The notes below the pieces were generated by a model. That model was not told the origin of the DNA, ran no database searches, and was given only the letters and a program-made list of their open reading frames with translations. From NCBI GenBank assembly GCA_905178155.1, contig CAJINV010000002.1, positions 10,272,146 through 10,336,145 on the forward strand: a stretch of DNA of 64,000 nt, written 5' to 3'. Position numbers and translations under genes: made by a program. This DNA is from Amoebophrya sp. A120. Taxonomy: Eukaryota > Protista > Dinoflagellata. Of the stretch, positions 1,901 to 53,600 are shown one piece after another (the stretch's first letter is position 1; each line of letters starts with the position of its first letter).

Positions 1901-4900
1901 TTATTTCGCCCCATCCGCATCGCGTTTTTTCATTTTTTGCGCGGCTTGCTCTCGTATTTTTTTCCTTCTGTCTTCCTTGGCGTCCCCGATCATTCCGGAG
2001 TAATTATATTGCTGAAACCCGTTGCTTGTCAAGTCGGATATCGGTACCATCGAATTGCCCTGCGCGGATGTCAAAGACGTCATTGAACTGTTCGGCGGCT
2101 GAAACAGAGACGAGCCCACCATGCTCGGCATGTTTGACTCTGAAAGCTCGTCAATAGGTCGTGAGACAACTGCAGTAGATTCCTGCCCCTCGTCCCCGGG
2201 CTGCATTGATATCGCCTTCTGTGTCGTAGACGCCGTTGCTGGTGTGGCTGCAGCTACTTTTTTCTTTTTCTTTCCTTTTGTTTTGCGGTCACTGCTGTCG
2301 ACCTGTTCCCGTTCCTGTTCCACTGGCGAACCTGCTTCAGCAGCAACGACACCACCAGTTAGCTCTTCTGTGGTGGCGTCCTCTACAACCTCCTCGGGCC
2401 CACCGGTGGTTTTCTTGATCTTCTTTGGCAATGAAGTTTTGCTCTTCGGCTTTTTCGTCGGCTTTACTTTTTCCCCAGGACCAGTGCCTCGAGGCGACGA
2501 GTCACCTGCAAGAGAGCCCCCGCCGGAGGCTTCCGCTCGGTTATCCTTCTCGTCCAGCACGACGTGCAACGGAGTCACCGTGCCTACACTCTCGTGCGTC
2601 GGCCGCGGGCTTGTGCCTGTGGGCGGGCGCGGCGTCATCATCATCTTGGGCACTTTTACAACGTTTTGGTTCATCTGCTGGCGCTGGAGGAAACAGCAGC
2701 AAAAGCATTGCTGGAGAAAACTGGGTTCCTGGCTTTCCCGCTGCCGCTCTTCCTGAACCAATCCTTTCAGACGCGCCACCTGCTGCTCGCGCGTTCTTTT
2801 CTTCGCGAATGTTTTTACCTCAGTTTTCAGCAAATTCTTCAACTGATTGTGAGACACAACTGGCTTCGACGAAACCGATTCCGCCGGCGTAGTCGCACCC
2901 GCCGCTGACATCCGTGGTTGATGGTCTCCTCCTGCCGCTGCCGCGTTCTTTATAGAAGGCATTGGTACAACAACTGCACTTCCGCTAGTGCTACTTCTAC
3001 GCCTGCTGTCAGCCTCATCACCGCCCCCCGCCATGAAACCCAATGCTGCGGCCTCAAACTCTTTGTCGTCGGCACCAGCATCCATTCCAAGCCTTGTCTC
3101 TTTATTCTGCAGGAAGATCCGATCCATTTTCTCCCGGTCCTCGTCGCCCGCCTCGGCCAGCACCTCGGACACCTGGCGCGGTTCCTCGTGCAGCACCGCT
3201 TTGGCGACTTTTTTCGCAAACACGGGGGTGAGGCCCTGGAGCACGAAGAAACGCTCCGACTGCCCCAACTCCAGGTCCGCGCACGTGGTTGACAGATCCA
3301 GCTATCAAAATGAAAAAACCCCCCTCCCCATATCGAAACGCAGTCCGTGATGCTGGATTTGCGTACACAAATCAGATTTGTCTTGCTGAAGAGGACTGCA
3401 GGCCCACTGCAAGCTTGAGGAGCGAGGTTTTGGCGTAGGCGCTTAGCATGGGAAACGTCTGCGCTGTAGGCCAAACAGCATCACAAACCGCCTGCATAAT
3501 GCGGCGGAGCCTGTGGAGTTGCCTTCTTGCAGGACAGAGATGACTTGTGGTCGCAAATTAGCATTGCAAATTTTCTGCGACGTACCTTTTCGATATGGAG
3601 AGGGGGGATTTTTCCCTGCGATACCAGCAGCTGGGTGTTCAACCTGTGCACGTCGCCGGAGGTCACGTACTTCTTCTCCGCAACTCGTCGCTTCGTCCAT
3701 TCCGCCAGCGTAGCGTGGGTCTGCAAATCCCGCACGTGCTCCGCCTCCCCGAAGGTCGGGTCGTCGACCGTGAGCACCCCAAATTTCTGCAGAAGAGTCA
3801 AATCAGTCTCCGTCATGGCGGTGTCCGAAAGGTCAAGAACCTTCGCTTGTTCTTGGTCGGTGGACGAGATAGCAACAGCTTTATCTTTGTCTTGTTGGTC
3901 CGCTTTTTGTTGTTCTACCACGTGTTCTTCTCCCGCATCTAATGTGGAGGTTTCTTGTAGCACATCAGAGAGGGCGAGCTTTTTAGCAACCGCCGGAGAA
4001 AACCCGGCTTCCCGCAGGGCAGACTCGTAGTCGTCGGCCGTGAAGAGGACTTCCTTACCGGGAAGATTATCATGGGCCGGTTCAATGTCTAACTTCCAAT
4101 TTCCGTTTTCGTCGTGTCCGAACTTTTCTTTGAACTTCTGCTCGAACAAAAGCTGCAACTTTTCAACGGAGTCCACGTCGCCGTACGTTCGCAGCTGCTC
4201 CAAAATCTGCAAATCCGCGGTCGTCGGCTCGGCTTGTAGCTGAGAATCATCATCATCTGTGTGCCCTTCCACTGGTCCACCGGTGGATTTGCTTTTGTTC
4301 GCGCCGACAAACCCCCTCGTGAGACTGAAGCGCAGTGGCGCAGCAGCACTCCTATCGATTGATGGGCCATCAGACAGTGGGAGTTCTTGCGTCGTCAGGC
4401 CGTCGCCGACGTCCACCCTTGCGACCGCCGATGCCAGCGCCTTTGCGTAGTTTGCGGAGAGGCCCAGGGAAAGCAAGGCCATCTCTGCGGTCTCGAACGT
4501 GCAGGGTGGCAGCACCGGGCCCACGGTTTCTGCGTGCAGTGTGGGACCCGAGCGGGCCGCCCCTGCGCTCCCGCCAGAGACAAGGCTCGCGTTGGTCCGG
4601 CTCTTGTTCACGCTCTTGATGCTCTTCAGACTCGCACCCGACGTGCGCACCGCACTTTCCGCCGGCCCGGTTCGGAGTAGGTCGAGGGACTGCTCGGTAG
4701 TACCAAGGACGTGGTCGTGGTCCGCACCGGTATGATGAAGAATGCCCTCCTGTTGTCGTTCCGCAGCCGAGGCTCGTGCTGCAGTCCTGCCTGCCGGCAT
4801 GGCTTTGTCCCCCGCGATGAGAACCGGGGACTTTACGATGACAACCACTTTCGGCCGTCGCGCTCCAGCCGGCAGCACGGCGCGACGATCCTCCGCCTGT

Positions 4901-14500: not shown

Positions 14501-14570
14501 CTTACCCACAGCACTCAAACTGCTTGCGCTTCGACGAAGAAGTACCTCCACGACTGCTCTACTGAGTAAC

Positions 14571-17500: not shown

Positions 17501-20500
17501 TCACAATCATCGACCGCTGCTGCCGCCCCAGCATGTCGCTGGAAGACGTCCACGCGAGCAGGTCCATCACTTGCTGCGACAGTTCGCTGTAATTGTGATT
17601 TTTTTTCGTTTTTTAAATACTTGCATGGGATAAAAGCGATGCACCGCTAAAGAACTCTCTGCACTTGCTAGTAGAGAGCTAGTATCTCTATCTTCTATCA
17701 TGATGATGCAAAAAATACGTCTGCTCGCAGCTGCTTGTTAGGGTATTATACACCATTCAAGGTTAACATGAATTTGAATTTGCTCTACTTTTATAGAATC
17801 TTCTAGCAGCAAGTTGTAGATTCAAAATCCTATACCCTTTCCTCGCCATTTGCGGCAGCATGGCGACTCCGTGGTCCTGGACGTGAATCCAGCCGACCGG
17901 GGGCTTCCCGTGCCACGGCAGCATCTGGTGCAGCTCGTTGGCCGGAACGACCTTTCCGTCCTTGATCATGGTGGCCGTGTTGTTGAAGAAGGAGGAGATT
18001 TTTCCCAAATCGTTGCCGTTGGTCATCTTCGAGAAGCTGGCCTGCGTAATCCCGTCCACCGTCTTCGGGTTCTGCGACAGGGTCGTCCCGCAGCCCGCCT
18101 GCTGGTGCTGCGGCGCGCTGCCCTTTGCGATACTGCCGGTGGTGCCGTTCGCACCGCGGGACGCGGAGGTGTTTGCCGTGTTCTGGAAGAAGGCAGCGTT
18201 CCCGCCCTTCACATTGTACTGGAACATGGACTTGTTGTGCCGGGTTTGTCCCTGGTGCTTCCCGCCCCAGTTGTACTTGCTGTAGGGGTTCCCCTTGGAA
18301 CTTTGCTGGTGGTGCAACTGTGCCTGCGTGTAGTAGGGGTTGGAACTACCCTTCACGCTGTCCGTCCCGCTAGACGGCTGGCCGTTCACGCCCAAGCCGA
18401 GCCCCGTGTAGGCGTTGTCGATCGCGTTGGAGTCCATCACATTCATCTTGTCCTGCTTCTCGACCTGCATGCGCCCGCCCTGCGTATCCGCCGGTCGGCA
18501 AAGGTCGTACCTGGAAAGTAGAATTAGAAAGGTGGATTTGATAGTGTTCATTTTTCCGAATCACGCACTCCTGTTGTCAAACTAGAACAGAAACGAAATG
18601 TCAATCTCCGCATACTCATTTGCACAACAAATCGATCATGCGGCAAATGAACCTCGCTAAAAAGGAGCTACAAGAACTACAACGCTTATGGGTCATGATG
18701 CACAAGCACAACTCCTCGAAAGCGTATTACCTGCGTGGCTTGTCCTTGTCACCCTCGGCTTCCTTTTTGGCGGACGAAGTCGAACTTTGTGGTTCCGCGG
18801 CTGAAGGACTGGTGTTCGCGGACGTTGCCGAGGAGGTGCGTACGGGTTTTACATTCTTGTCCTCTTCCACGGCCTCCGCGGAGGGCTCAGCGGCAGCTGG
18901 AGAACCAGCAGTCGTCCCAGATCCATCCTTCGCTTCCTCAGCGCCACCTTCCGCCGCATTCTCTTCTCCCACAGGAGTTGGCTCGCTGTATGACGCCGCA
19001 CTGTGCGGGTCCTGCAGCGGCGGCCGGGGCTCCGGATGGGAAAACGGGGGCTGGGCGGCGTTTGCTGCCGCTACCGCGGCAGCGGCCGCCTGAGTTGCCG
19101 CGGCACCCGCCCCGGCGCCGACCAAGGCGGTGTACGCGTTCTGCACGGCAAAGTGGTGCTCCAGCTCCTGCGCGGTCGCCTGTGCCGCGGCGGTCACCTG
19201 CAGCTGCTCCAGCAACTGTTGCTGCTGCGCAGCGGCCGCGGCCTGAGCGGCCACCAGCGTGGACGCGGCCGCGGCATGGATGGTCTGTTGCAGCAGGTCG
19301 TCCGCGGATTTCCCACTGCCGTAGTACTCCGCAGCCGCCGGATTCAACGACGTGGCGGACGAGGAGGCCGAGGAGGAGGGGATCGCGTGGTCCAGGTGGT
19401 CCGTCCCCGCGCCGGTCTGGGAAAACGCTGTGGCCGCAAAGGGAACGTACGCCGCGTCCAGGGCCGCTGCACCCGCCGCGGCATCCACGGACGTGGCGGA
19501 TTCCAGCATGTGATGCGCGGCCGAGCCAACTCCGGAATTCGTGCGCGACAGCGACGCCATCGCCTCCTGGTGCTGCGCCGAGGCGGCAGCCGCAGTCATC
19601 AGGTACTGCTGCATCAGGTCGTACTGCCCAACCTCCTCGTGCGCGGTCACGTGCGAACTCGCCACGCTGACGCGACTCCCCAGGTGCTGCTGCTCGTAGT
19701 GGTTGTGCCCAGCAGCGTGATGCTGCTGCGCGGCCGCGGCGGCGGCGGCGAAGTAGGCAGCGTTCTGTTCGTGCAGGGGGGAGGCCATCAACCCGGTCCC
19801 AGCCGGCTGCTCCCCGGAGCCCGGCACCAGCGGGTCGTTACCGGTCGTGGCGGTCCGCGAGATCCCGTTGGTAGTTGTTCCGTAGTCCGTCGAGGCGCGA
19901 CCGGCGGCTTGCTTTAGATCCACGACGCTACCGGTAGCGGTGCTCATACCGAGGGGCGCGGTGCCCAGACTGCAGACCGCCTCCTCGGTGAGGGTACACA
20001 ACCCCCGGTCGTCGGTCGCCCCGCCACTGTAGTTTTGCGCGGCGAGCGACTGCTCCAGTGTTATGGATTGCAAAAATGTCTGGGTCTGGAAGATTGCAAC
20101 TTGTGATGCTGAATCCGAATCATGCAAAAATCTGTGTTGCATAAGTGCCAAAAGCTATCCCCTTTCGATCAAGTTGGGAGGGAGATTCTCATGCAGGAGA
20201 GGCATGGCAGAGACCTCACAGACTCTGTCATGCTAGGTCCTGCATTCCAGACCTCATGGGGCATGGAAAATATGCATGACAAATCTGCATTTTCCAGACC
20301 CAGACATTTTTGCATTTGATAAGTGTCGTGGCAGACCCAGTCAGCGAGAACTCGCCCCCGTAGTTGGCGTACACGCTCGACCGCCGCGGGTCGTTAAACA
20401 CGGGCAAGGACGCCGGAGAGTCCACGGAGCTCACGCCCGACATCTGCCGGCTCATCGGATGAAACCGGGTGGAGACCGAGCGACTGAAGTGCTTCGGCTT

Positions 20501-21981
20501 GGCAGAAGTACTCGTAGTTTGTTCCACCGCCTTTGTAGTTGCACTAGTAGTGCCAGCTGCTGTTGTCGCACCAGCACTGGTCGTGTTCTTGCCCGGAACT
20601 ACTACTGCAGCCGCAGGGGCTCCTGCTGTGGCGGCAGGAGAGGGGGTAGCAGCAGCCAAGGTGACGTCCTCGTTGCTTTGTTCAAGAACGCCATGATCTT
20701 TCGAAGTGCTCGCGTTGGTCTCCGGAGCGGAAATCGTGCGCGCAGCGGGTTCGTCCGCAGTTTCATCTTTTTCCCCTACGTAATCCAGCTCCGCCGTGCG
20801 GCTCTGCTGGATGGTGGTCTTGATGCGGTTTGCCGCAAACGTCGCGGTGACTTTCTTCTCATCCGCCTGCTGCTCGTTCTCTTGCATCGCAGGGGCCAGA
20901 ACCAGCTCCGGGTGATCACCGCTTTCTATTGTGGTCTGCTCCTCGAGTTCTTTACTTTGCGGAGCAGAAGCGGCAGCGCTTTCTCCGGGAAGATGTTGAA
21001 TCGACGTCGAGGTCTGCTCTGCGGTAGTTGTACTTGGAATGCAAGATGTTGAACCACCACGGCCACCTCGTCCCGCATCACTTGCACAAGTGCTGCGGGA
21101 TCTCTCCTCCGTTGATGTCATAGGAGAAGCAACCGCCGCGACGTTTATCCTGAGTAAAAACGTCCCCACACCAGAGTTGTCATGCAGATTTGCAATGACA
21201 GGAACATTTGTAATGCGCATCGCCAGGAGAGGCATTTTTAGTCGTGTTTTGGAATTTGTAATGCTGTAAACAGGATGAGTAGATGGATTTCTGATGCAGC
21301 TGGCCTTGCGAACCTGCACTACACTACGGACTGCAACTACTTGTGATGCGTGACCCCCAAAAGTTCTAGGTTTGTGTTGCAAAATCCCCATCTTGACTCT
21401 GGTGTGGGGATGTTTTTACTCAGGATAACGTTGGTCATTTCGTTGTTCAGCTGGCTGCTGTTCTGCAGCAGGCCAAAGGGGCTCGAGGGAGTGATCGTGG
21501 ACCCGGACTTGTTTTCGATCCCCGTCGACGCGGTGGTGGGGCAGTCATCACTGGTGAAGAACTTTTTCGACGGCGGTGGCGTATCGGAGGTTGGCGAGGA
21601 GGTTTTGTGCAGGACAAAACTCTCCGCCGAATTGGAGGAGGTGAGCGTCTTCAGCGTGGAGATAGAAGAATCCGTGTTGCACTTGGAATGCACCTCCAGA
21701 GGCACGGCCGTGCTCGCCTCCAGGGAATCCTCGCACCCACTGCCAGCAGTTGCCAACGCCTTACTATTTGGTGCTCTGCCGTTGAGGCTGCTGTCAGCTT
21801 GTTGCGACAGCATTTTGATCTTATCTGCTGCGTTATTCTCCATTTTGATATTGACGGTCGGCGACAGCTGCACCGGCTGGTAGGCTTCTGCCGTTTTTTT
21901 TGCGGTCGAATCTACTTGTTCCGCGAAAAGATTCTTGCTTTCCAGCAGTGCTTGTTCTACCACTGGTGTAGGAGATGACAT
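14571..21981 (-). CDS. Pumilio/PUF RNA-binding protein, 5 exons, ~2129 aa, with long low-complexity regions
   Basis: PUF repeats (CGNYVCQKL, YSCRVLQKF, NANHVVQRC, YGCRVLQRL, YGNYVLQYY, FASNILEKL, FGNYIVQKL). Exons 21428-21981, 20322-21140, 18731-20056, 17836-18510 and 14571-17586 sum to 6390 nt. They are separated by two introners and two phase-matched GT-AG introns (18511-18730, 17587-17835). Confidence 0.88.
20062..20321. mobile_element. Introner-like TIR element, family A1 (260 bp), TSD AGTGT
   Basis: AGTGT at 20057-20061 and 20322-20326. TIR TATGGATTGCAAAAATGTCTGGGTCTGGAA / TTCCAGACCCAGACATTTTTGCATTTGATA. Removal gives GSATT|LEQSL in frame. Confidence 0.95.
21146..21427. mobile_element. 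Introner-like TIR element, family B (282 bp), TSD ACGTT
   Basis: ACGTT at 21141-21145 and 21428-21432. 32-bp TIR TATCCTGAGTAAAAACGTCCCCACACCAGAGT with 1 mismatch. Removal gives NEMTNV|AAVASP. Homologous to 41875-42153. Confidence 0.95.
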
Positions 21982-24900
21982 ATTAATTCAGATTTTCCTA
22001 CGTGCGCGGCACAGGAAAACCTTTACTTCTCAATCAATATCGCAAGTTCTGTGTTGATCCTCTGCTACTTCTGTTGCAAAGACCTTTTGTTCAATGGGAC
22101 TTGGTGCTCACGATCTTTTCTTTTGCGTTATGTAGTTCTTTCCATAAGGCTAGCCAAGTAGCGTGATCCTCCTTCTCAGTGATTCAGATTTTAGTACTAG
22201 TACGTTGATTGTTCTCGTCGTTGGTACTATGTGGCAACGGGATGCCACGTTTATAGGCGAAAGGAGTTTTTGTAGATGTAGGTCAAGGAATTGTACACGG
22301 TTGTAGCTAGTGGTGTTTATAGAGAAAAATAATAAAAGGGAGCCACTCGATGAATTTTGACACGTCTCTTTACGTGCAGCTCGTCGGGTCCTAGTTTTCT
22401 AGCTTCGAGGGCTACGCGTGGTCAAGTTGGTTTATTCTCTTCGAAGAAAATAATCAGGGGAAAGTGGTAGTGCTAGTACTCCTGTCCGCCCCTCCTTCGT
22501 AGTTCTCTACGCAAAGAGAACTTTTGGTCGTGTTCTTCTGCGACACAGAGTCTATATTGTCCAGTATGTTTGTCACAGACTACTTATGAAGGTTGGTGTC
22601 ATTCGCTTCCTTCTTTCTTTCGCAAGTTGCGCACAGACACGAAGACCGCTTTTCAAACAATTAGTGTTCTCAGGTCTGCGGTTGAGTAAAATGCTGTAGG
22701 CGCTGGGAAATATTCTTTCCCAACTGTTGTATTTGAAGATCCTACAAGTGTACGAAACTAATTCCAAAAAAGGGCAGAAGTTCTTTGAAAAAACTGTTCT
22801 TTCTTGAGTCAAGGTTTGTGTTAACAAGCTATATCGCCTAGATAGCTCAGAGCCAGACAGAATTGATATTGAACCTGCTGGATAATAAAAAGACAAAAAG
22901 GCGCAGGCAATGAGATACAACTTGGTATCTATGGTTGACAAAAAAGTCGTTTCAATTTTTCAATTTCTCCAGTTGTGACTAGCTATAATCTTTTCTATGC
23001 AGCTGCCGCTACTAACGCGCGTACTCCGCTATGATGAATATGTCGGTGTTATTGTTCCTCTATTTTGCTTAGTACAAATTCTCCACGTGGTCGTCGAGGA
23101 TAAATACGTACTACTTCCTACAAGCACAACGCAGCGGCTTCAATCGACGAAAGTTTCGATTTACGATTCCTTCATGAAAGCTGCTGGTGTGGCAGATAGG
23201 GGTCGCGATATGGTACACTAATTATGCTAACGCTGCTTCTGAAGCGTGTGGAGGAATCAAAGTCTTTCTTGCAAACCTGCACCCCTGCGCCTCAGTTTGT
23301 CCAAATTGGAAATAAATAACCAGAAGATGCGTGCTTTGGCGTTGCAAAGAAAACTGTGACAGTTACTTAGCAGCCAGAAGTTGTACTATATCGCTCTATT
23401 GTAAAACCTCGCGGTCGCACTTTGATTATAAATCGTTTTCCTCCTTGATACATTTAACAACGGTTACAGTCGTTTTTTTCGTTCTCTTACGTTGTGCTTG
23501 GTTGTAAGGCTTGCGATGCCACTGCTCCGGGAATCCTGGAGGGAATTCAGTTGCCAACAAACAAAAAGACTCTACAGAACTACTGCTTCGTTTTTCAGAA
23601 GAATTGCTTCGCAGCACGGCCACAGTCTACTGACAATGCGTATCTTCGAGAAAGATCTGCGATAAGGATGAGTTCGGCTTTAAAGGGGTAAAAACTTATA
23701 CGTGGTAAAGAAAAATCCTTAGGCACGACTTCAGATTAAAATGGGGGTCAATTTTACAAATGAAAAATCACGGAACTGAGGGCATTGTAAATCTTCTGCA
23801 AAAAGAGTGTGAAAGACTTTGCCGCTAGGTGTTGTGTGGCGTTTTTATTTTTTTTTGTCAAAATCTACCTGTGTTCGCGTGTGTGTGTACTGAAGTGTGA
23901 CTCTACGACTATCTTTTGCGATGTCAGCTTGTCGTAAACTAGGGCAGTAACTCGATAGAAGAATCCAACACTAAGCTACAACACTTGTGTGCCGGTAGAT
24001 TTTTTGTTCGCGTTTTATTTTTTTACTACCATTCAGGGAAAGACTTCGGGAAAAAAAAATTTTGCGAATATTCGTGATGGTTTGACAGATTGTGGGATTA
24101 ATGATCATACAGAAATCTTACAATCGTACAAACGAGTAGTAAAATTCGAATCCTCGCAGATTTACATTGCGACGGTCTCGGTCACTGGCAACATTTGGAA
24201 AAGAAAATAAGAACGTAAAATTGCGACACAACCCTCAAGAAATGCCGTCAAGATCTTTTCTGGGCTCTGCGTTCCTCGCGGGACCTTAGAAGCCATATAT
24301 CATTGGCATTTGAAAAATCTTTACAGAACAACGAGCACACTTGGGATCATTTCAATTCTCTCCCGAAGCGGGGAATTCGCTGCGTGTCTGATCTCGCGGA
24401 CAATGAGTGCAAACATTTCATCTAGAGGAAGATCTCGATACGGGCATTTTTTGGCAACGCAAAAAGATCCTTAGCGTGATGCCTCATTTAGGGGCTGGTC
24501 AGGCTCTGATGTACAACGACTTCAGCGGAACTTTTGCAAAAATACGTACAAGTACTTGATGATCTTCCAGATCTCTGTATCGAATTTAAATTCTCGCAAT
24601 GACACTGAATTTTCTCATTCTTTAAGAAGCGGCTCGGCTCATGCTCTATTGTTTCAAGAAGCGTGCGTCTTTCTCATACATCGAAATTGGAGTTACTCAT
24701 ACAGAATCCACAAGCCAAGGTCTGTGTACGAGGTGGTGGTCAAATGGTGGAACACGAGTTTTTAGATTTTTTTTTCAGCTTCCTTTGTTATTTGACATCA
24801 TGATGGTGCTGATGACGTTCTTTTTCAGATTTTAGAGTAGACATAGTAGTCCTTCAACGTTTACTAGCTTTTTTGTTTCTTTACCAGCGCAGTTTTTCTC

Positions 24901-25055
24901 AGGTACAGGTTCAAAGTGGCTCTGTCAAGCTAGTTTTTTTCTCGAAGTACCGCTAGAAACACGAGAGAGATGACACAATCTTCCGCGCGTATCCGATGAA
25001 AGTTTGAGTTTCACAAATACACTAATAGCTTGTTGCTACAACTTGCCCTGGGGGA

Positions 25056-28000
25056 CTAGGACCCGAGCTTCGGGACCGCGGGCGGGACAGGGGCTTGGTA
25101 TATCCTTGGAGCGACGTGCGGCCCCTGTTCGCCGGACAGTATGGAGGTGGAGAGGTCGTTCTGCAGCATCCCCGGGGCCTCCCCCGGTTGCTCGGCGGAC
25201 AAGACATTTGGATCTCGGATCTGCCGGTCATTCGACCGACACGAAGCCGTAGACAGGTCGTAGCTGATCGGACCGCTGTGGTTCACCACCGCGTACAATG
25301 AGTCCGGGTGGTTTTCCGGATTGTAGTTGAACATCGCCGCCTATGCATTGCAAATATGTCTGGGTCTGGAAACTTGTGATGCAAGAAAGGGAATAGTGAA
25401 CTCACTATGATGCGTTGCCAAGCATGACAAGTTTTTTTCATGGTTCTGAGTTGCGTACTCCGCATCACAAGCTGCGTTTTTGCATGACAGGGAGGAGGAG
25501 CTCTTCGCGGCCATGCAGCACAGAGTTCAGAGTCATGCCAGACTAGCATGACGAATCTCGCAATCTCCCAGACCCAGACACTTTTGCATTTGATACCGCC
25601 CACTCTCGAATTCGCGCCTGTTCTTGGTCGCCACGCGCCGCCGCCTGCCGCAGACCCCCACGGTCGGCGCTCTGTTCGGAAACGTCGTAGGAGCCGACTC
25701 TGGGAGGTTCCCTATTGTCATTGTATCCATCAAGGCAACGCTGGTAGTAAAAGTAATGCACAACCGCCAGAGCGGCGCTGATTAAAGCGAAACCGGAGAG
25801 ACCCGCCAGGACATGCAGGGCGGTGCTAGTGCCCCCATGACTGCCAAACGACGTCGGACCGGGTGCCGCCCAGCTTTCGTGTGAGTGGTCTACCTCTGGC
25901 ACATGTGACTTCGACGCTGGATCCGTTGAACTTGGATTTGCACGACCCCCGCCTGTCTGATTTTGCTTTTCCCCGAGCGTGCTTGAAGAGGCTGGCAACA
26001 AGAAATTATAAAGATTGTGACTTTGATTCTTTCCCTTTCCTTTTCCTTTTCCCTTTCCTTTTCCCGCCGGCGCCTCTGTTGTTTCACCCCATGGGAGGTT
26101 CCCGCCGTCCGCGCCCCCAGAAGCTGACTCACGACTTCCATTGCTCTGCGCCGTTGTGCTAGTTGTTAAAAAAGGCGGTGGGAAGTCGACACCGCAGGAC
26201 AAACTACCCGTGTGTCTTTCGAAGACAGGGGTATCATAGATGTGCCTGTCCGTCTGTGCCTTGTCTTCGACTGCAAGAAGGTCCTCCACTCCCTTGCCAT
26301 AAAAGCGGATCACGTCCCGGGGAAACGGGCGCAGGAGGCAGTAAGGAACCTCTGCGTCGGCATCCAGTGTGAAGGATCGGCAGCCGCTGGTGATGCGACA
26401 CAGCAGCTCGCAGGCAAAAAAACCCTGGGGGGGCCCCAGTATAGCGTAGGTCTGACTCGCAAGCAAGTGGACGGGCCGCTCTTGTTCATCTCTACTTACC
26501 ACCTGCTCCGCCAGCTGCGATCCTTCTTTCTTCATCTCGGCCAGAAGTCCTTCCCACTGCGCGACCGTTTTATCGTACCTCCACTCGGCCTTGCTCCACC
26601 GCGTCCACATGTTCCTCCACTGCACGGGTACGGCTGCAGGACCCAGCGGGACGATGTGCGAAATCCCCGACAGAAGCTCCTCCCCTTCCCAGGCTTCCCG
26701 CCACGAGGACTTCCGTACCATGTCAAACCGGTAGGCCTCTCCGCGTCGTGCGTCTTCCTCTAAGTTGCACTCCTTCCAGGCGCGCTGGCGGGGCGAACGC
26801 AGCGGACGAGGGTCGTCCTCCGAAAATGCACCATCCGCCGATGGTGCGAAATTCTTTTGCTCCTGCCCGACACGATGATCCGTGTGGCCGTCCTTTCGTT
26901 TCTTATCCGTTTTGCTGCCCTTGCTGATGTCCACCTTGTTGGGGCCATTCTTCTCCTCGCCCTTGTATTCACCAGCGGTAATTATCCAGGTAGTGGCGTC
27001 ACAAGGGAAGCCAACCGCTGTAGTATCCGGCTCCCGGTTGTAGTCACGACCGTCAGGCCTTTTATCATCCCTTAATCCATCGTGCACGACGAGCTCCACT
27101 CTGTCGGGCGGCTTGGAGAACAGCCGGCATCGCCAGCCTTCGTGATGCAAGACAGCCGGCAACTCTGTGTCTCGGATGCTATTTCGCGAACGAAACACCT
27201 CCCAACCGCGGCACGTGGCGGCCGGGATGCCGGGGAGTGAATGTTGATAGCCGGCGGGAAAAAGGGCGCAGGCGAGGGCGCACTTTTGCCGTGCGTGCGA
27301 GGCCGCAGCCTTCCTCCCCTCGTCGCTGGACTCGTTTTTTTGCGGGCACCAGAAATTCTGCCTTCCCATGTAGTTGTAGAGCCACTGCTTTCTCACGTTC
27401 TTTCCAACATCCGCGCCAGCCTGTTCGACCTCGGGAAGCGAATCCAGCAGCTTTGTGAAGTTGCTGGATACTTCCGCACCTTCAAGGTCCACCCAGCCGG
27501 CAGCATTGTCCCGAAATAAATTCACCCCGTCCACGTAGGTGACGACCTTTCCCTGCTTGTGTGCGCAGAGCTTCCGGTCGCTGCGATCTACAAAATCCAC
27601 GAGCCCCTCAGCTTCTCCCGCCGTCGTGCGGGACCCGGAGAGCGGAACCTCCAGCAGCATTACCGCCGGCACGTGTGCACTCTGCATCCCCTCCTCCGTT
27701 CGCGCGGCTTCCCGAAAGCCCGGCAGCTTGTCGTCCGCACCAATCACTTCATATCCGGATCCCGTTTCATACAAACCCGTCGGATAGGTGTCGACCGAGC
27801 AGCTACGCGGGGCAACAGAACCTTCTAGCACCTCATGTTCCATAGCATAGCTGGCAAAAGCATTCTCCCTCTCCACGTCTATGGAAATTCCGTCTCGGAC
27901 CTGCGGATACAGTAGCAGCCCGTTTCTTTTCCTCGGGTACTCCGGGTCACTCTCATCGCCCGTGAATTTACAACACAAGCACATGACATTTTTTTCGTTT

Positions 28001-37380: not shown

Positions 37381-40024
37381 TCATTGAAACAAAGTGAGCA
37401 TCTTTCTTTTTTCCTCGGACATTTGTTTCAGAGGGAGACAACAGAAGTCTTCCATCCTAAACCGAAAAACATTGTGGGGATAAAAATACGACTGATCTTC
37501 TCTTTTATCATTCACCGCGTTTTTCTCGCTCGCCAAAGACATATCTGCGGTTGCGGTGCAAGAAGTACCACTACCTGTGGCCGCACCAGTCCCCGCAGCA
37601 GCATTTGTTACCTCGGGTTTTTGTTTTTCCACAACTTTCGTGTACTCCCCCACTTCGGGCCTCTCCACGGTTTTGTAAAAGCCATTAATCGCCATCTCCG
37701 GAATACTCTTCTCCTTGCACCGCGCCCGCACGACGTTAAAGTGGACCGCGTACTCTCTCGGAACATCGAAATGAATGACGGAGCAAGTTACGGTGACGAA
37801 GTTACTAGTGCTCTTCTGCTCGTCCCCTTCTTGCTTGGACCGGAATGACGCGATCAGGTCGTAATAGTCTTTTCTGGTTTTCACATCCCGGTTGGTGTTG
37901 TCCACCAAGCAGTTTTTCTTCTCTTCAAACAACCCCTTCTTGCTATCAAAAGGAAAAATGCCCCCTCCCCATATCGAAACGAAGTTTCTGATGCTGGATT
38001 TTCGTACACAGATCGGATGCGTCTTGCAGTAGAGGACTGGAGGCATATGCCAAGCCGGAGCCGAGGGGTTTTGACGTAGGCGCCTAACATGACAAATGTC
38101 TATGCTGTAAGCCGAGCAGCATCACAGACCGCCTGTATAATGTGGCGGACTCTCTGGGCTTGCCCTCTTGCAAGACAGACAGGATTCGTGGTCACAAACC
38201 TGCATCGCAAATTTTGAGAGGGATGCGCTTTCAATATGGGGACGGGGGATTTTTCCTTACAATACTTGCACCGCGCCACACACGCGTCGCGCGACTTTAG
38301 CGTCTCCTGGTTCACGTAGATCCACGCCTTGCTGTCCGGGTTGCTCTCCTGGTCGAAAAAGAGCTGCTCAGCCAGCGTGGATTTCCCGGACCCGGGGGAA
38401 CCGACCAGGAGAACCAGGTGGAGGTTTGTACTAGAAGTGTTTCTGCTGTCATCGTTGCTGTTGTTCACCCCTACTTGTTCTTCAGAAGTGGCTGCACGAG
38501 CAGGACGGCCCAAAATCTGCTCTGTCACTTGCTTTCGAAACGAGCCTGCTTTTGTTCTCGTCGTGTTTTGCTCGTTTTGCTCAACTTCTCCTTGATGCGG
38601 GTCGTGTTCCGGCGATTCTCCCTGCTCCTGCTCTCGACTGCTCGCGTTTTTGAGCTGCGTCACCGATGGCACGAAGAATTTCCGCGGATCGAACCCCCCG
38701 AAGGAGTAGAACTTCTCGTCCTTTTCCTGCAGAAACCACTTCTCCGGGCTGTAGAACGTCCAACCCAGGTTCAGCGCAAACTTGTAGTCGGAACTGGAAA
38801 AGTCCTTCTTCGCAATTCCGGCCCGCTCCGGCCGGCCCGCGGCGTCGCCGACGTAGAAGGAAGTGCGCGTGTCAATCTCGAAGTTTGGATTTCTTTTCTT
38901 CATCTCTTGCACCACAAACTCGTACCCACCGGTGCCCGGCTTCCGGCAGTAGTTCTCCCCCAGTGCGGCGATGATGACGACTCGGTCCCTCGTTTTCTCG
39001 TCCAATTTCGACAAAATTTGCTCGCATTTCCACTTCCAGTCGTTCAACCTTAGTTCCTGCTGTTTCCGGTTGTTTTTGTGCAGCGAAAGCCCGTTTTGAT
39101 TTGTGAAAATCCAGATTTGAGTTGTAAAAGTAGATGAACTCGTGTTGGGTGGATTCGAATCTGATTTTACTTCGCAAACCAGCTCATTCAACCGCTTCAC
39201 CACCATATTATTCGGATATAACCACTGCCAGTCGTGCTTATCCTTGGGAAAAACCTTGTATAAGCTGCTCAGGTGTTACAATCTCAAACGTTACAATAGA
39301 ATCTGGAATTTGTGTTGCAAGAAGCGCATTATCTAGCTTACTCCCATAGGATTGCGCATGACAAGTTCTGGAGTCCCAATCCGCACTACAATCTGGCGAA
39401 ATTTGTATTGCAGAAAGTGGAATGCTGTCCGAGTCTGTCATGCTCATCATGCAATACAAAACCCAGACTCTATTGTAACATTTGAGATTGTAACGTTTGA
39501 GCGGGTCATACCTTGCCGGATGAAGTTTTGATCAAAGTGTTGTCCAGGTCGAAGGCGGCCACTCGAAGGCGGTTCTTATTTTGCTTGTTTACATTTGCCT
39601 CCACTGGTTGCCCGTATGCAACGACTGGGTCGTTGATGTTTTCAGGCAAGTGTTCTAGCGTTTTCGCCCCAAAGTAAATGTGCAGAGAATCGTGGTAAAA
39701 CGACTTCCACAACTGCGGTGACGGATTGGTCGAGGACGCAGACGTGGCTTTTCCCGCGATTATGTTGTTGCCCCCGCCAATAGTTCCCGGCATCCCGAAG
39801 ATACGGACAGGCTTTTTCGTGGGTGGGTGGGGGCCGCCAACGGCGGTATGTTGAGTCGTGCCATTTGTTCCGGGAGCATTTTGTTCCGCAGCTGGTCGCT
39901 TCAAGGAAGATGTCGAGCTGGCAGAAGCGCCTGCAACTGCTTCCTGTGGATCCTGTTGCGGCGGAACTGCTGCTTCCTTCGATGGCATGCCTTCTTTATT
40001 TTCGGTCACCCTTTCTTGATGCAT
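37381..40024 (-). CDS. PNKP: Bifunctional polynucleotide 3'-phosphatase/5'-kinase (~686 aa; start codon uncertain)
   Basis: AAFDLDNTLIKTSSGK|VFPKDKHDW, IFTNQNG, RKPGTG, FYVGDAAGR, KDFSSSDYKFALNLG, P-loop GSPGSGKST, VDNTNRDVKTR. Two introners split these motifs; exons 39511-40024, 38265-39253 and 37381-37938 total 2061 nt. Confidence 0.93.
37944..38264. mobile_element. Introner-like TIR element, family C (321 bp), TSD CTTGC
   Basis: CTTGC at 37939-37943 and 38265-38269. Removal gives CVARCK|KGLFEEKKNCLVDNTN. Confidence 0.95.
39259..39510. mobile_element. Introner-like TIR element, family D (252 bp), TSD CCTTG
   Basis: CCTTG at 39254-39258 and 39511-39515. ~48-bp imperfect TIR containing GTTACAATCTCAAA(C/T)GTTACAATAGA. 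Removal restores the conserved SGKVFPKD motif. Confidence 0.95.
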
Positions 40025-40665: not shown

Positions 40666-42729
40666 TCATCTAAAGTTCGTTAACCCGAAAGTTCCGCCCC
40701 AGCTCCCGTTCATTGCGCGATTGTCGTTGACGCCGCCACTCCCCGAGACGCGGCCGGCGGCCACACCGATTAGATTCGCATACTTTATCTCACCTGAAGC
40801 GTCTTCCCACTGCCAGCGCAGGTTCTCGTGTTCCGTAAAATACTTTATTGGGATGCCCCGCTTCTGGATCTTGGTGGATACTGAGGCTGTGCTTGTTTTC
40901 GTCGTAGTACAATTCTGCGACAAGCCTTTCGACCCGGCCCCAGGCTGTTGAAGATCATTGCTGGAGACAGGATCTTTAATTTTTGAGCTAGAGGATGACT
41001 GTTCTACTCCGACAGGACCGCCATCGCTGTTCGATACTCCCTCCATCATGCCGCTGCTATCGAGCAACGGATCGACGGCCGGGCTTTCTTCTGCGGTGGC
41101 GTCAGCCGTGCTTTGCAACGACATGGTGCTTTTCATCAAGTCTCGATTTGCGCTCTTCAAGTTTTTGTTACTCTCCTCCGGCGGCGTCGGGGGTGCGGCG
41201 GTCGATTTCGTCTCCAGCCCGGCGTGCGTCAGCGGGTTTGTTTTCGAAATTTCGTTGATCGTAGCGGCACTCACCACGTTGTTGGTGGGCAACGTTATTG
41301 TGTTCAGTGGCGCAAGCGTCACTTTGTTCGATTTGCTATTTTTCAGCTGCGCGGCGTTTTCCTCAAGCATTTCGACGAAAGCGGGCGACCAGGTCGGTTT
41401 CGGCTCGACGAATTCGCCCGGGGCGATCGACTCCGTATTGTCGAGGGGGACTTTCTTCAGGTATGGAAGCAGAAAACACGTGTGCGCGTCACTACGAATC
41501 ATCTCGTCGGCAAGTTTCCTGTTTTGATGTGGGGGGATGGAGCATCATGTGATAAGCACAGAGGATCTTCAGATTTGTATTTTCATCTGCTGGATCAGGA
41601 TTTCTTCTGCTGCAACTTTTGCTCCTTCACGAAAGGGCCACTTACTGAAAGAGGTCCTGGAGGCGACAAATCGGTATTGCATGCGAATCAAAGGTGCGGA
41701 ACCACTTGTCCTCGGGCATCGTATCAAGTTGTAAGTAGCCTACTTTGTTCTTTTCGTTTGATCATTTCATTGAGGAACCAATAAGACGTATAATACCGGA
41801 ACTTCCTTTCCCGGATCGCGGTCCTCCTGCCCTGGGCGTCGGGCGACAGCTTGGGGTCGTCAAGCTCGAAAAGGTATCCTGGGTAAAAACGTACCCACAC
41901 CAGAGTTGTAATGCAGGTTTGCAATGACAGGACCATTTGTAATGCGCATCCGCATGAGAGCCATTTCCAATCGTGTTTTGAAATTTGTAATGCTGTAAAC
42001 AGGATGAGTAGATGGATTTCTGACGCAGGTGGCCTTGCGAACCTGCACTACACTGCAGAGTGCAACTTGTCATGCGTGACTCACAAAAATCCTATGTTTG
42101 TGCTGCAAAATCCCCATCCTGACTCTGGTGTGGGTACGTTTTTACCGAGGATAAAAGGTCAATTTGAGACATCTCGTCCCGCTGCAAGAACGAGGAGAAA
42201 TCGGAGCCCATACTGACGTATGAATTGCAAAAATGTCTGGGTCTAGAAGATTCCAAACTTGTAATGCTGTCTCTGGATTCTAAAAAAATGTGTATTGCAT
42301 GACCAGCAAGAGCACTCCACTTAGTGCTACGCGAAGAGGGCATTTCTCATGCGGTAGAGGCATCGCAAACTCCTCTAAAAATATGTGATGCTAGGGCATG
42401 CATCACAGACATCATGGGCCATACAAAATATGCATGACAAACCTCCACTAGGGCCGTGCATACAAAATAAACATGTCGATCGATTGTGCCACTAGGGCCT
42501 TGTGTTCCGGCTATTCCGGATCGCAATCGATGGAGGGCGGGACCTGCACCGGCGACAGGCGCTACCCAACCAACCAACCAACCAAACCTGGCAATCTTCC
42601 AGACCCAGACACTTTTACATTTGATATGACGTCTTTGTCCGAAGGATCCGCAGCACCGCCCGCGCACCACTTCGCGCAGGATCGGGACGTTTGGTTCTGA
42701 AAGGCAAAATGCTCGCGATCCGGGACCAT
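40666..42729 (-). CDS. Hypothetical multi-exon protein interrupted by two introners
   Basis: MVPDREHFAFQN...DKDV|SMGSDF...SQIDL|FELDDPKLSPD reads through once both elements are removed. A GT-AG intron at ~41519-41645 leads into ORF 40666..41502. One junction near 41740-41800 is unresolved. Confidence 0.55.
41875..42153. mobile_element. Introner-like TIR element, family B (279 bp), TSD AAAGG
   Basis: AAAGG at 41870-41874 and 42154-42158; TIR TATCCT(G/C)GGTAAAAACGTACCCACACCAGAGT. Confidence 0.95.
42219..42626. mobile_element. Introner-like TIR element, family A1 (408 bp including a nested insertion), TSD TGACG
   Basis: TGACG at 42214-42218 and 42627-42631; family A TIRs; 263 bp without the nested insert. 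Confidence 0.93.
42445..42582 (+). mobile_element. SINE-like retroposed insert (138 bp) with (CCAA)n tail and 7-bp TSD CAAACCT
   Basis: CAAACCT at 42438-42444 and 42583-42589; (CCAA)5 at 42566-42585. Removing it restores the family A1 length. Confidence 0.7.
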
Positions 42730-48301: not shown

Positions 48302-48365
48302 AGCCGTGTGTAAGATGTTGAAACGGAGAGGAGCAAGAAACGTTCTACCACCTTTTCTTCTACAC

Positions 48366-49456
48366 AGTCACAGCAGGGAAAAAACAAACCAAAACAGAAA
48401 GACAACAAGAAAAACACCACCTCCTCCGTTTTCCTGCGGGCCTGGGTAAAAGTCCTCGTACTGCTCGTGGTCGTAACCGGCGGCCGCCTGCATGTAGTAG
48501 TCCTGCATGTTGGCATATGGCGAGCAAAAAGTGTTTCACTGTAAGGATTTTGGCAGGTTTGCATCACAAGTTCCTTACACATGACAAAGAAAACTTGCCA
48601 TGCGAGATCCCTAAGGGAAAACAGAGCTAACAACTCAATGTCTTGCATGTGTAGCAAGACAAATGCGTCTTTGTTCCATTCTATGCATCACAAGTTTCCA
48701 GTGAAACAGTTTTTTCTCACGATATGGCAGCCGCGGCCCCCGCCGCACCGTACATGTCGGTCGCGTCTGCGCTGTATCAAGTGCAAAAGTGTCTGGGTCT
48801 GGAAGGATGCGAGGTTTGTCATGCGTGTCTGCCATGACTGAAGAGTTTGTGATGCGTGTCCAAGAAGAGACCCTCTTGCTTGTCATGCAAAACGCAGTTT
48901 CTCATGCGGAAAGCGCAACACTAAGCAGCGAAAATGTTTCTCATGCTTGGCTGTGCATTACAGAGAGTTCACTATTAACAACTCAGCATTACAAGTTTCC
49001 AGACCCAGACATATTTGCATTTGATACGCTGTTAAAATTTCCCATATTCGCCATCGCCGCCGCCATATTGGCCATCATGAAGTTCGTCGCCGGATCCGCT
49101 GCGCCCCCGCCCGGCGCCGCTCCCTGCGCCGCGGCGGCGTACATGCTGGCCAGCGCATTCGGGTCCATGGCAGCAGCAGCAGGATTTTGCTGTTGGTGCT
49201 GTTGCGCCGCCGGGTCAAAATAGGAAGGGTGCTGCAGCCAGGAGGAGTGCTGTTGCTGCTGCTGCGCATCGTGGTACCACTGCGCATTCTGGTCCTGCGC
49301 TGCGTAAAACATACCCATTTGCTGTTGAAAACTGTTGCCCTGTTGTTCCTGCTGTGTCTCACCCTTCTGCTGGCCCTGGTGTTCCATCATCTTCTCCTTC
49401 TGGTGCTGACGCTGTTCTTCGGCAGCCGCCGCCGCTGCCATGCCTGTTTGCATCAA
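48366..49456 (-). CDS. Q/A-rich low-complexity coding region split by two introners
   Basis: MMQTGMAAAA...MGNFNS|ADATDMYGAAGAAAA|NMQDYYMQAAAGYDHEQY reads in one frame with uniform composition after both elements are removed. The 3' end is uncertain. Confidence 0.6.
48516..48724. mobile_element. Introner-like TIR element, family E (209 bp), TSD TGGCA
   Basis: TGGCA at 48511-48515 and 48725-48729. Left end TATGGCGAGCAAAAAGTGTTTCACTG versus reverse complement of right end TATCGTGAGAAAAAACTGTTTCACTG. Confidence 0.9.
48775..49026. mobile_element. Introner-like TIR element, family A2, reverse orientation (252 bp), TSD CGCTG
   Basis: CGCTG at 48770-48774 and 49027-49031. The interior is the reverse complement of the 25342 and 51321 copies. 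Confidence 0.95.
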
Positions 49457-50699: not shown

Positions 50700-53600
50700 T
50701 CAAAACACGTCGTCAATCTCCTCATCCAGCGCATCCAGCCCCATGCGCTCCCTTTCCATTGGCTCGTACGCCGACATGAACTTTTCGATCGCACCCCACT
50801 TCCCTCGGTTCCAGCCGTCCTGTTTTCAACGTTGTTTCGCATAGCACCCGAACGATGGCATGAGCATGAAAAAATGGAACTATCATACACTGGCAGCATT
50901 TCACATACCGAACTACTTCGCGTCTCTTTTCCAGCGAAACCACTTGCTTCTATACCTCTGTTTTTGCCATCAGTTTATGGTTGATGATATCCAGCTATCA
51001 AATGTAAAAATGTCTGGGTCTGGAAGATTGCAACTTGTCATGCTAAATCTGCAGCATGCAAAAATCTGTGTTGCATGATTACCAAAAGCCGCCCAATTTT
51101 GACCAAGTCGGGAGGTAGTTTCTCATGCAGGATAGGCATTAGAAAGTTCTCGCAGAATCTGTCATGCTAGCTCCGGCATTCCAGACCTCATGGGTCATGG
51201 AAAAGCAGCATGACAAATCGCGCATTCTTCCAGACCCAGACATTTTTACACTTGATACCAGCTCGACGACGGTCTCGCCGTATCGGTAAAACCCCTTGTT
51301 AATTCGATGAAACGGCACGGTATCAAATGCAAAAATGTCTGGGTCTGGAAACTTGTGATGCTAAAAATGAATGGTATACGAACTGCATTACGCAGCTATG
51401 CATGACAAATTTTTTGGCTCCCATGTCTTACGTATTCCGCATGGTAAACTGCGTTTTTGCATGACAGGTAAGAGGGCCTTTTCGTGCCTATGTAACACAG
51501 ATTCTCAATTCATGCCAGACAAGCATGACAATAAACTTGCATTCTTCCAGACCCAGACATTTTTACAGTTGATACACGGCGGAGCCGGTCGAATTGTAGA
51601 ACTCAGCCAGGCGATTGTCCACTGGATCACGCAAATCCCATGGCGTGTAGGGAACCTTGTTCCACGTCAAAATTATGTTGGGCACAACTGGTGGCAAAAC
51701 TACGCTACGCTGGGCTACTGCAGCGAGGAGCGCGTGATGACTTGTAGCAACAATCTATTCGGACAGCCGAAGGCGGCGCCTGGAGGTGCTTCTATGCAAG
51801 CATCTCTAGTATTATTTGAAAAAAAATCAGTACCGCTGGCCGTGTGCTCGCATAGAGCTGCCGTGTGTGCAAATGATGCTGCCCGCCACCGCGATTCGCG
51901 CTGTTTCGTGACCCGCCGCTCTGTTTGGTGTTTCATACACAATTCCAGTTATTCAGAGCAGCTTGTCGTTTCTGAGCAATGTTTCGCATGCCACGAAAGC
52001 GACAACGACAAATACTTCACTTTTTACGCACAAGAGCAGGGCGTGTCATTTCTACTTCTTACCGTCGCCGAATATCGGCTTGCATTCTGTTCCCCCGGCG
52101 TTCGCACGACGACTCCCGCACCGGCGTCCCTTTCTGCCAGCATCTTGTGTAGTCTGTCGATCTCCCGTGCCTGTTCCTCGTTTTCGGATTGTAATTCTGC
52201 TACCTGCCGCTGCAACTGCTCCACCTGGTTCATCGCCGCAGATTGCTGCCCGACGGAGAGATTGGTCGTGTTTAGAGAGGTAGAGTTGCGCGACACAGGG
52301 CCGGTAGTTTTGTTGGTCAAGACAGACCTGCTGTTTACATTTGTCATTGCTCCTCCGGTGGTGGTACTGTTTCGCGCGGCTGGTTGCGCGAAGTGTGGCC
52401 CCGATCGGGAAGAGGAGGATCTGGAGTTCCGCGATTGGCTGGCTTGTTCCTGGTGCTCTTGCGGATCCCCTTGTGATGCACTGTGTAGGTGTTGCAGTTC
52501 CTCTTGCTGCGATACTTGATGTTCAGTCACACTGTAGTTGCTCCTGGACGACCCCTGATGTCCTTGACTGAAATTGTTCTGCGTATACGCATTTCCATTA
52601 CGTCTCACCAATCCAGCACCTGACATGTTGAAGGTTCCGGCACTTCCACTACTGGGGAAGAACTGCTGCGGTAGTTGCTGTGGTGCGGGAACCCCAACGG
52701 GCCCGGGTGGCGGCAAGCCTCGGATCACATTGTTCCCTGGTGCGGGCCGGTAGAAGTTCCCGACTTTGTTGCTCGCTGCAGAACTGTTGGCTGTTTCGCC
52801 ACCCACCGATTGCTGTGGCAGCACGAACTGGGGCATAGACTGCTGTGGCTGGTACACGGGAACGCCTCCCGGCACGTTTTGCTGCCCGGGGAAAGATATC
52901 AACTGTAAAAATGTCTGGGTCTGGAAGAATGGAAGATTTGTGATGCAGGTTTTCCATCACCCATGAGTTCTGGAATGCGAGACCCAGCATGACAGATTTT
53001 CTGAGGTCTCTATCATCCCTTTCCTGCATGAGAAACTCCCTCTCAACCTGGTCAAAAGCAGACAGCTTTTGGTACTCACGCAACACAGATTTTTGGATCA
53101 TTCAGATTTAGCATTACAAGTTCTAACCTTCCAGACCCAGACATTTTCACATTTGATAAAAGAGAGCATGGGCTGCTGTAGCTGCGTAGGAACAACTCCA
53201 GGTACGACACGACTGGGCACCTTGACACGGAAACACCTCGACAGTGAACTCCCGACGAATTTTGCAAAACCCCTAGTCGATTCTTTGTCGATTCCTTATC
53301 CAAAACGAAAATCGCACGCACGTGCTCCAATGTCTACGCTCACGACTGTTGTCGTGCGCCACACGGCCAGAGAGAAGGCCGGCGACTTGAAACCACACAA
53401 AGCCAGCGCTTTGCTCCAAGTCGCTGGCAGTTTTTGGCGTCCCCTTTCGGTGTCGAACAATTGCACGCCGCGCTGCGGTTCTACTGTATCGAACCGGCTG
53501 CGCGGCTTTTGCACTGTGCGTCATCTTCCGGCTCGAGCCTTGCTTTGTACACTTGTACGAAATGGAGGCCCCGCTCACCCTGCGGCGTGGCGATTTTGCA

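Follow-up and report, generated by a model that had tools for sequence, protein, structure and literature searches.

The introners of Amoebophrya sp. A120 have been described as elements whose ends start with TAT, followed by seven variable bases and then by at least three As (Farhat et al. 2021, PMC7789003, section 11). They were defined there through RNA-seq junctions compared with genomic DNA, and section 10 of the same paper reports that U1 snRNA went undetected in both A120 and A25. Its authors identified no transposase in A120 and contested the idea of a general transposase-driven mobilisation (PMC7789003). The introners of A25 have TTA ends. Another A120 element, family 38, carries terminal inverted repeats (TIRs) together with ORFs with Copia/Gypsy homology (Gozashti et al. 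2025, PMC12130899), and its entry in supplementary file 8 reads "5-bp TSD, TA/TA Termini". This family may provide a candidate enzyme type, already in print, for TAT...ATA elements. Such elements number in the tens of thousands, in a cell with undetected U1 snRNA.

The window analysed here, a stretch of 64,000 nucleotides of the A120 genome, contains 13 elements (Table 1) that are almost certainly A120 introners, i.e., non-canonical introns. An earlier note on this DNA had missed this status: the elements interrupt reading frames and correspond to the published introners. The organism, the terminal inverted repeats, the hairpin, the many families and the non-canonical borders are common to both. 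The elements also fit the direct repeats of 3-5 nt at exon borders and the length of about 240 nt given in the 2021 text, from which they show no difference in kind (PMC7789003). The end code itself, known since 2021, adds nothing to that description. Probable additions to that paper (PMC7789003), some of which its figures may show, are a duplication of exactly 5 bp abutting TAT, an inverted repeat of about 30 bp, four families devoid of the A-tract, insertion in both orientations and an internal motif. The shared motif, TGTVWTGC, may be the sole new item.

Table 1. Introner-like elements and the PNKP host gene in the window
Feature	Positions	Strand	Size	5-bp repeat	Observations
Family C element	3303..3623		321 bp	CCAGC	Interrupts a minus-strand frame; removal with one repeat gives 1643 + 467 open codons
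Family A element	20062..20321		260 bp	AGTGT	Interrupts a minus-strand frame; removal gives 458 + 444 open codons
Family B element	21146..21427		282 bp	ACGTT	Same gene as the element at 20062; removal gives 185 + 717 open codons
Family A element	25342..25595		254 bp	CCGCC	Removal gives 1047 + 95 codons; GC-AG register possible
PNKP host gene	37381..40024	-	686 aa		Two elements inside; exact match to P0001 after removals
Family C element	37944..38264		321 bp	CTTGC	PNKP intron 2; no GT-AG or GC-AG register
Family D element	39259..39510		252 bp	CCTTG	PNKP intron 1; no A-tract; GT-AG register possible through the repeat
Family B element	41875..42153		279 bp	AAAGG	
Family A element	42219..42626		408 bp	TGACG	Internal (TTGG)n expansion
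Family E element	48516..48724		209 bp	TGGCA	In frame within a minus-strand gene
Family A element	48775..49026		252 bp	CGCTG	In frame; same minus-strand gene as the element at 48516
Family A element	50996..51257		262 bp	CCAGC	
Family A element	51321..51574		254 bp	CACGG	
Family A element	52897..53158		262 bp	AAAGA	

The elements were detected by a scan requiring an exact 5-bp direct repeat, identical first three bases at both ends and at least 20/30 inverted matches, TAT not being assumed. Fifteen matches were obtained, namely the 13 TAT...ATA elements and two inside a single AT-rich palindrome internal to another element. Each of the 13, 209-408 bp long, is flanked by an exact 5-bp direct repeat, and its two ends match at 24-29 of 30 positions of the inverted repeat. 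The predicted RNA folds of the two PNKP elements give z = -10.2 (family D) and z = -6.4 (family C). A wider set of 292 elements (584 ends, 18 families) was assembled from the window and from 614 kb of loci of a related assembly. Three of the 295 scan matches were removed before counting: one lay inside a family B element, and two were long pairs (1864 and 6197 bp) attributed to chance. Relatives of all five window families (A to E) are present in these loci, with copies up to 95% identical to those of the window; an RPB1 exon of this assembly has a best match of 86%, none being identical among the best 120. A second scan, of the wider material and again not assuming TAT, gave 791 raw matches, mostly internal or cross-element pairs, and was used solely to count repeat lengths and first triplets. 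The longest direct repeat is 5 bp in 260 of its 272 TAT...ATA matches. This duplication directly adjoins TAT, no strong target-sequence preference is seen at the insertion sites of the wider set, and among family A elements 17 share the strand of the gene and 20 lie opposite to it, observations that speak for insertion at the DNA level. The traits of MITEs, or non-autonomous TIR transposons, are thus found together: TIRs, a fixed duplication length, no coding capacity and many copies.

The earlier note had proposed that families with unrelated TIRs share one end code, TAT-N7-AAAAA. The family ends quoted in it do sit where it had placed them, and families with different TIR cores indeed share TAT ends, the 5-bp duplication and, mostly, the A-tract. 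In the window, TAT is found at 26/26 ends, AAA at positions 11-13 at 23/26 and the full AAAAA at positions 11-15 at 18/26; family A has four As in the tract at 6/14 ends, and family D, as previously noticed, keeps TAT only, both its ends being devoid of the tract. Conservation of the tract is firm only at positions 11-13, since positions 14 and 15 differ between the ends of one element in 3/13 and 4/13 cases. The variable region, placed by the note at positions 5-10, is confirmed, but position 4 also varies (it differs between both ends in 6/13 elements) and at position 9 G predominates in the window (family-weighted 0.95, versus 0.53 in the wider set). The window has 24 matches to TAT-N7-AAAAA, six of them outside elements, versus 2.26 +/- 1.47 in 100 shuffles; spacers of other lengths (3 to 12) give 4-10 matches each. 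In the wider set, TAT is nearly invariant (576/584 ends), and TAT, seven variable bases and at least three As are found at 494/584 ends. The earlier note would have been refuted by a tract no more conserved than its neighbours; in this larger sample, drawn from the window and the 614 kb of loci rather than genome-wide, the tract is the better conserved part, the information content over the 18 families being 0.71-1.40 bits at positions 11-15, versus 0.11-0.58 at positions 4-10 and 0.00-0.65 at positions 16-30.

The families are not unrelated, because TGTVWTGC is present in all 292 elements and alignments between several pairs of families extend over the greater part of the elements. The motif is found in only 24-41 elements in 20 shuffles, and its 1093 copies compare with 24-46 in the same controls. 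Shuffles were chosen because the flanks, positive in 126/291 cases, are probably inflated by undetected elements. There are about 3.7 copies per element, the first inward one usually lying 33-45 bp from an end.

Several of these features would agree with the proposal of the earlier note that one enzyme or factor acts on all families, recognising TAT and the A-tract as two contacts one helical turn apart. TAT is almost constant, there is one duplication length, AAA occupies positions 11-13 in 14/18 families and one motif is found everywhere. However, the tract can hardly be a required second contact, as it is missing from 4/18 families, each of them present in several copies with TAT ends and 5-bp duplications. 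The segment at 16-30 differs from family to family yet is well conserved, both inside families (0.78-0.95) and between the two ends of an element. Such segments are expected in TIR transposons when every family is served by a protein of its own. The tract does behave as a DNA-end feature. The family-specific segment fits several related transposases equally well, and shared descent accounts for the code without a shared enzyme. A single enzyme is therefore doubtful, whereas one transposase lineage behind all families is moderately probable.

No enzyme of this kind was found in the window or in the loci. As far as Pfam can detect, and in line with the earlier note, none of the 136 stop-to-stop frames of at least 120 aa in the window matches a transposase, integrase or recombinase, as was the case for 25 window frames searched before. 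The 130 longest of the 149 locus frames of at least 230 codons gave no transposase either, nor was any autonomous partner bearing one seen in the window or the 614 kb of loci. The longest element found (1104 bp, locus L016) has short reading frames of low complexity, as judged by eye, and the family A end has no match in viral contigs.

The intron status of the elements is illustrated by PNKP. The exon at 38271-39206 matches P0001, annotated as a protein of Amoebophrya sp. A120, at 100% identity, and P0001 fits only one of 81 combinations of removal lengths, that of the element plus 5 nt at both sites. After these removals, alignments with the A25 orthologue and with six further PNKPs run across both junctions without gap. 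Similarly, removal of the element plus 5 nt at another locus (L067) fuses the RPB1 matches (P0121 residues 213-649, 759-1132 and 1194-1397) with no added gap; extra gaps appear with lengths of +2 or +8, and the frame is lost with +4 or +6. Among 244 testable elements, 129 have a flank that does not score as coding. The other 115 include 101 same-strand cases, 95 of which have equal frames on both flanks, according to a codon model whose training frames were drawn from the same spliced loci. This analysis supersedes an underpowered orientation test based on stop-free frames. A model-free check agrees with it, with 81/226 junctions stop-free after +5 removal versus 26-40 at out-of-frame lengths. 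The host frame is not settled for five of the 13 window elements (41875, 42219, 50996, 51321 and 52897). The elements are likely excised from pre-mRNA together with one duplication copy, removal at the RNA level resting on the annotated protein, the homologue alignments and the 2021 paper (PMC7789003). In practical terms, the annotation rule for genes of this lineage is to delete the element plus five bases.

Most of these introns lack canonical borders: a GT-AG, GC-AG or AT-AC register is available in 12 of the 95 in-frame elements and in none of the other 83. A G preceding TAT was considered as part of a GT donor and rejected, G occupying the last repeat position in 37/95 cases, similar to other positions. 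The idea that the tract-less families need canonical borders was likewise discarded, since a GT-AG or GC-AG register exists in 2/10 of their in-frame copies versus 6/85 of the others (Fisher p = 0.20).

The end code could itself be a splicing signal rather than a transposase contact, elements surviving in exons only if each end bears TAT-N7-A-tract. On the 3' side, the tract would then appear as consecutive Us lying 11-15 nt ahead of the junction, resembling a polypyrimidine tract, and the symmetry of the code would permit either orientation. Insertion into the essential genes PNKP and RPB1, in both orientations, is consistent with this idea, as are the undetected U1 snRNA (PMC7789003) and the lack of a transposase in the window and locus frames. 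Yet AAAAA shows no 5'/3' asymmetry, being equally frequent at both transcript ends (52 versus 52 of 95). Nor is the tract better kept in exonic in-frame copies (divergence from the family consensus of 0.067 at positions 11-15) than in the remainder (0.058). In addition, a GT-AG or GC-AG register is missing from 8/10 in-frame copies of the families devoid of the tract, so that the tract does not appear to be needed for non-canonical removal. All these tests are weak, given that the copies are young and that the remainder includes unrecognised exonic ones. A splicing role of the code is unlikely, and the code looks more like the DNA-end signature of one transposase lineage.

Removal from DNA instead of RNA would resemble the elimination of sequences in ciliates. 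The TA-bearing ends, the lack of splice signals, the indifference to orientation and the single repeat copy left behind would all suit such a process. It is nevertheless highly improbable, as both assemblies retain the elements at high density and the 2021 definition relies on RNA-seq junctions against genomic DNA (PMC7789003). In addition, no germline/soma split is known in this group. As for chance, or the selection of AT-rich ends, its probability is negligible: the six matches outside elements do exceed the 2.3 expected from shuffles, but a chance origin is refuted by the 24 matches versus at most 6 in any shuffle and by the scans presupposing no TAT, which return it in 13/15 and 264/284 matches, and the code was independently published (PMC7789003).

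The reading retained here, to which we give a probability of roughly 80%, is that these elements are A120 introners, inserted as DNA by related transposases and removed from pre-mRNA with one duplication copy. Its anatomical part, the organism, the restored frames, both orientations and the shared motif are direct observations. Insertion would proceed through a 5-bp staggered cut made by integrase-type transposases that form one related lineage and have their genes elsewhere, TAT being the presumed cleaved end. The A-tract at 11-15, the family-specific segment at 16-30 and TGTVWTGC would be putative protein-binding sites derived from a common ancestor. In the transcript, both ends may pair as a long stem that places the two duplication copies together; a cut in any of six registers would then restore the pre-insertion sequence without GT-AG signals. 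A bolder version, quite unlikely in its entirety, is that all A120 families stem from one unclassified TAT...ATA lineage with a Copia-like integrase, and that a dedicated factor, blind to orientation, cuts the duplication by reading the paired ends and TGTVWTGC, with neither splice-site signals nor U1. The search for the missing transposase and for the splicing factor can use as specific probes the exact 5-bp duplication, the two orientations, the families without a tract and the internal motif.

Among known systems, Transib/RAG-type ends combine CAC termini, an A-rich second site and a 5-bp duplication; membership was rejected here, the termini being TAT. A120 family 38 is also an intron-generating TIR element with a 5-bp TSD and TA/TA termini; by description, it is about 808 bp long and bears ORFs, whereas the window elements are non-coding and 209-408 bp long (PMC12130899). 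MITEs and other non-autonomous TIR transposons, including the introners of Micromonas, Aureococcus and Fritillaria (PMC11282704), share with them the TIRs, a fixed-length duplication, the absence of coding sequence, many copies and intron gain, but the copies studied here mostly lack a canonical register (83/95), lie in either orientation and have no known autonomous partner. Ginger elements move by cut-and-paste with a transposase resembling Gypsy integrase, and two of them, TDD-4 and TDD-5, duplicate 5 bp as here (Bao et al. 2010, PMC2836005). However, Ginger has TGTNR ends and mostly 4-bp, sequence-specific targets, as opposed to TAT and unspecific 5-bp targets (PMC2836005). Membership in this group was rejected on the TAT found at 576/584 ends, only the duplication length of TDD-4/5 being compatible. 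Finally, the nonconventional introns of euglenids, as described in PMC11282704, have ends paired by inverted repeats, repeats at their junctions and no GT-AG, as do the A120 elements, from which they differ by CAG/CTG at +4 to +6 and by their lineage.

The element ends quoted in the earlier note are present in the window, and the end code that it described, TAT-N7-AAAAA, is confirmed. A scan for inverted ends with an exact 5-bp direct repeat beside them, their first bases left free, gave 15 matches: 13 TAT...ATA elements and two within a single unrelated palindrome. The 13 elements measure 209-408 bp and fall into five families (A 7, B 2, C 2, D 1, E 1). The code occurs 24 times in the window versus 2.26 expected (at most 6 in 100 shuffles), and element ends account for 18 of these matches. 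All 26 ends start with TAT, 23 carry AAA at positions 11-13 and 18 carry AAAAA at 11-15. The family A spacer (positions 4-10) does not vary freely, since a few variants recur (CAAATGC/T, CAACTGT, GGATTGC, GCATTGC), often differing between the ends of a single copy; it forms an internal loop close to the base of the RNA stem.

A wider sample was obtained from a second assembly by a pattern scan with a family-A end, which returned at least 150 stretches among an estimated 520, forming 146 partly overlapping loci (613,620 bases) biased towards the neighbourhood of family A. Matches between window and loci are confined to the window's elements. Copies in the loci reach 95% identity with those of the window and have a median of 87.5% among themselves; this similarity indicates that the second assembly is from a close relative, perhaps A120 itself. 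Calls with a 5-bp repeat start with TAT in 264 of 284 cases, and five is the longest repeat in 260 of 272 TAT...ATA calls. A search that asked only for TA ends, a 5-bp repeat and inverted matches at 19 of 30 positions yielded 295 elements, the window's 13 included, of which three were dropped. Among the 584 remaining ends, TAT starts 576, AAA is found at 11-13 in 494 and AAAAA in 324. Over 18 families of at least two members each, which are not independent, positions 11-15 hold 0.71-1.40 bits, versus 0.11-0.58 for positions 4-10 and 0.00-0.65 for 16-30; in this sample the tract does stand out from its neighbours, contrary to the refuting outcome named in the earlier note. It is absent from four families (26 elements with one singleton), whose ends read TCAA., TCAGG or CACAA.

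The window contains minus-strand eukaryotic genes, among them PUF, PNK3P, Torus, Mo25 and a thioredoxin-like gene. One frame is 100% identical to P0001, a PNKP protein of Amoebophrya sp. A120 by source name; the second-best match, the orthologue from Amoebophrya A25, reaches 34%. The 686 residues of P0001 can be read in only one of 81 combinations, in which both elements of the gene are removed, each with exactly five additional bases, and both junctions align without gaps with the A25 orthologue and six other PNKPs. The same removal fuses long frames at four further window elements; by the codon model, 8 of the 13 are in frame and five unsettled. Of 244 testable elements, 115 have coding-like flanks on both sides; strands agree in 101 of these, and frames in 95 of the latter once the element and five bases are removed. 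A model-free check of 240 bases per side found 81 of 226 junctions stop-free at +5, versus 26-40 at out-of-frame lengths, and in locus L067 matches to RPB1 fuse without added gaps at +5 only. The elements thus appear from sequence to be introns in effect. Owing to the 5-bp duplication, sequence alone does not reveal the precise cut, six registers giving one product. A GT-AG, GC-AG or AT-AC register of any kind is available in only 12 of 95 elements. Strong RNA hairpins are found in two window elements (z = -10.2 and -6.4).

Insertion by reverse splicing is disfavoured by orientation: family A lies 17 times along the gene strand and 20 times against it, which points to insertion as DNA.

The families had been described as having unrelated TIRs, which is true for positions 16-30 only, since a common motif and long alignments link them elsewhere. 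TGT[ACG][AT]TGC is present in all 292 elements, versus 24-41 in 20 shuffles; with the terminal 30 bp left out, it totals 1093 copies, versus 24-46, although the shuffles give a check of size rather than a blind test, the motif having been chosen from the same elements. An inward copy ending in C or T begins at positions 16-70 in 368 of 584 ends, mostly at 33-34 or 41-45, and the motif is absent from six of the seven other RPB1 introns in L067. Several family pairs align across most of their length; the families are related.

The A-tract could alternatively be a splice signal, in which case asymmetry between ends or better conservation in exons would be expected. Weak tests lean against this: AAAAA is equally frequent at both transcript ends (52 versus 52 of 95), exonic copies are no better kept (deviation 0.067 versus 0.058), and in 8 of the 10 cases where a tract-less family interrupts a frame, canonical borders are missing. 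These tests lean towards a putative role of the tract at DNA ends. The best reading would be a lineage of related transposases cutting at TAT, inserting with a 5-bp stagger and putatively binding the tract, a family segment and the internal motif; RNA removal would likely proceed via end pairing, which would bring both repeat copies side by side. The interpretation in the earlier note is partly supported; a single enzyme might serve all families. Searches of 136 window frames and of 130 of the 149 long locus frames detected no transposase, which for the window agrees with the earlier note.

The 991-bp triplet either arose by tandem duplication or is an artefact of assembly, and the AGTCTACTGACACGGAACTT-core motif may mark its recombination point.

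Positions of individual features in the window and in loci (L) of the second assembly
Position	Feature	Observations
window:33483-35082	1.6-kb element, unlike the others	70-bp near-perfect inverted ends (TGTAAAAATATTGG...); two internal AT-rich palindrome copies; target duplication not evident; within an apparent GT-AG intron of a thioredoxin-like gene, directly past the WCPPC motif; none of its frames matches Pfam; its end has no exact copy among the 146 loci
window:38271-39206	PNKP frame identical to P0001	
window:53222-54504	11-bp unit in two opposed arrays	~1.3 kb; repeated TTTCGTACAATTGTACGAAA palindromes
window:53172-53221, 54505-54551	~50-bp near-exact duplication bounding the arrays	exon-like in appearance
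window:57077-63431	~22-nt motif, core AGTCTACTGACACGGAACTT	at 57083, each 991-bp unit border and 63396; weaker copy near 23615
window:59689-62660	991-bp unit, tandemly repeated in three identical copies	each with a family-A element, right end without terminal TAT segment
L013:591-2090	C-5 cytosine DNA methylase frame	PF00145, E 1.7e-37
L016:505-1608	element, 1104 bp, among the two longest	ends and 5-bp repeat retained; short low-complexity frames only
L067:625-11767	RPB1 locus	seven elements of three families; ordinary-looking introns
L067:7024-7995	element, 972 bp, among the two longest	ends and 5-bp repeat retained

The TAT/A-tract feature is already known: Farhat et al. 2021 describe ends of A120 introners with TAT, seven variable bases and three or more As. 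Neither the internal motif nor the orientation result is mentioned in the literature searched, including the words of the 2021 text; its figures and Roy et al. 2023 could hold them. Both make the question of mobilisation and splicing slightly more testable. According to the text portions of Farhat et al. 2021 (PMC7789003), neither U1 snRNA nor a transposase was detected in A120, and the same Amoebophrya picture is repeated in the corresponding part of a review (PMC11282704). In the sections concerned of Gozashti et al. 2025 (PMC12130899), many A120 families are classed as TIR elements of undetermined family; within 41 of the 58 A120 rows of its supplementary file 8, family 38, which has Copia/Gypsy-like ORFs, is listed with '5-bp TSD, TA/TA Termini'. 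Ginger elements, as described in the relevant excerpts of PMC2836005, have TGTNR ends and 4-bp targets, which disagree with those of the A120 elements.
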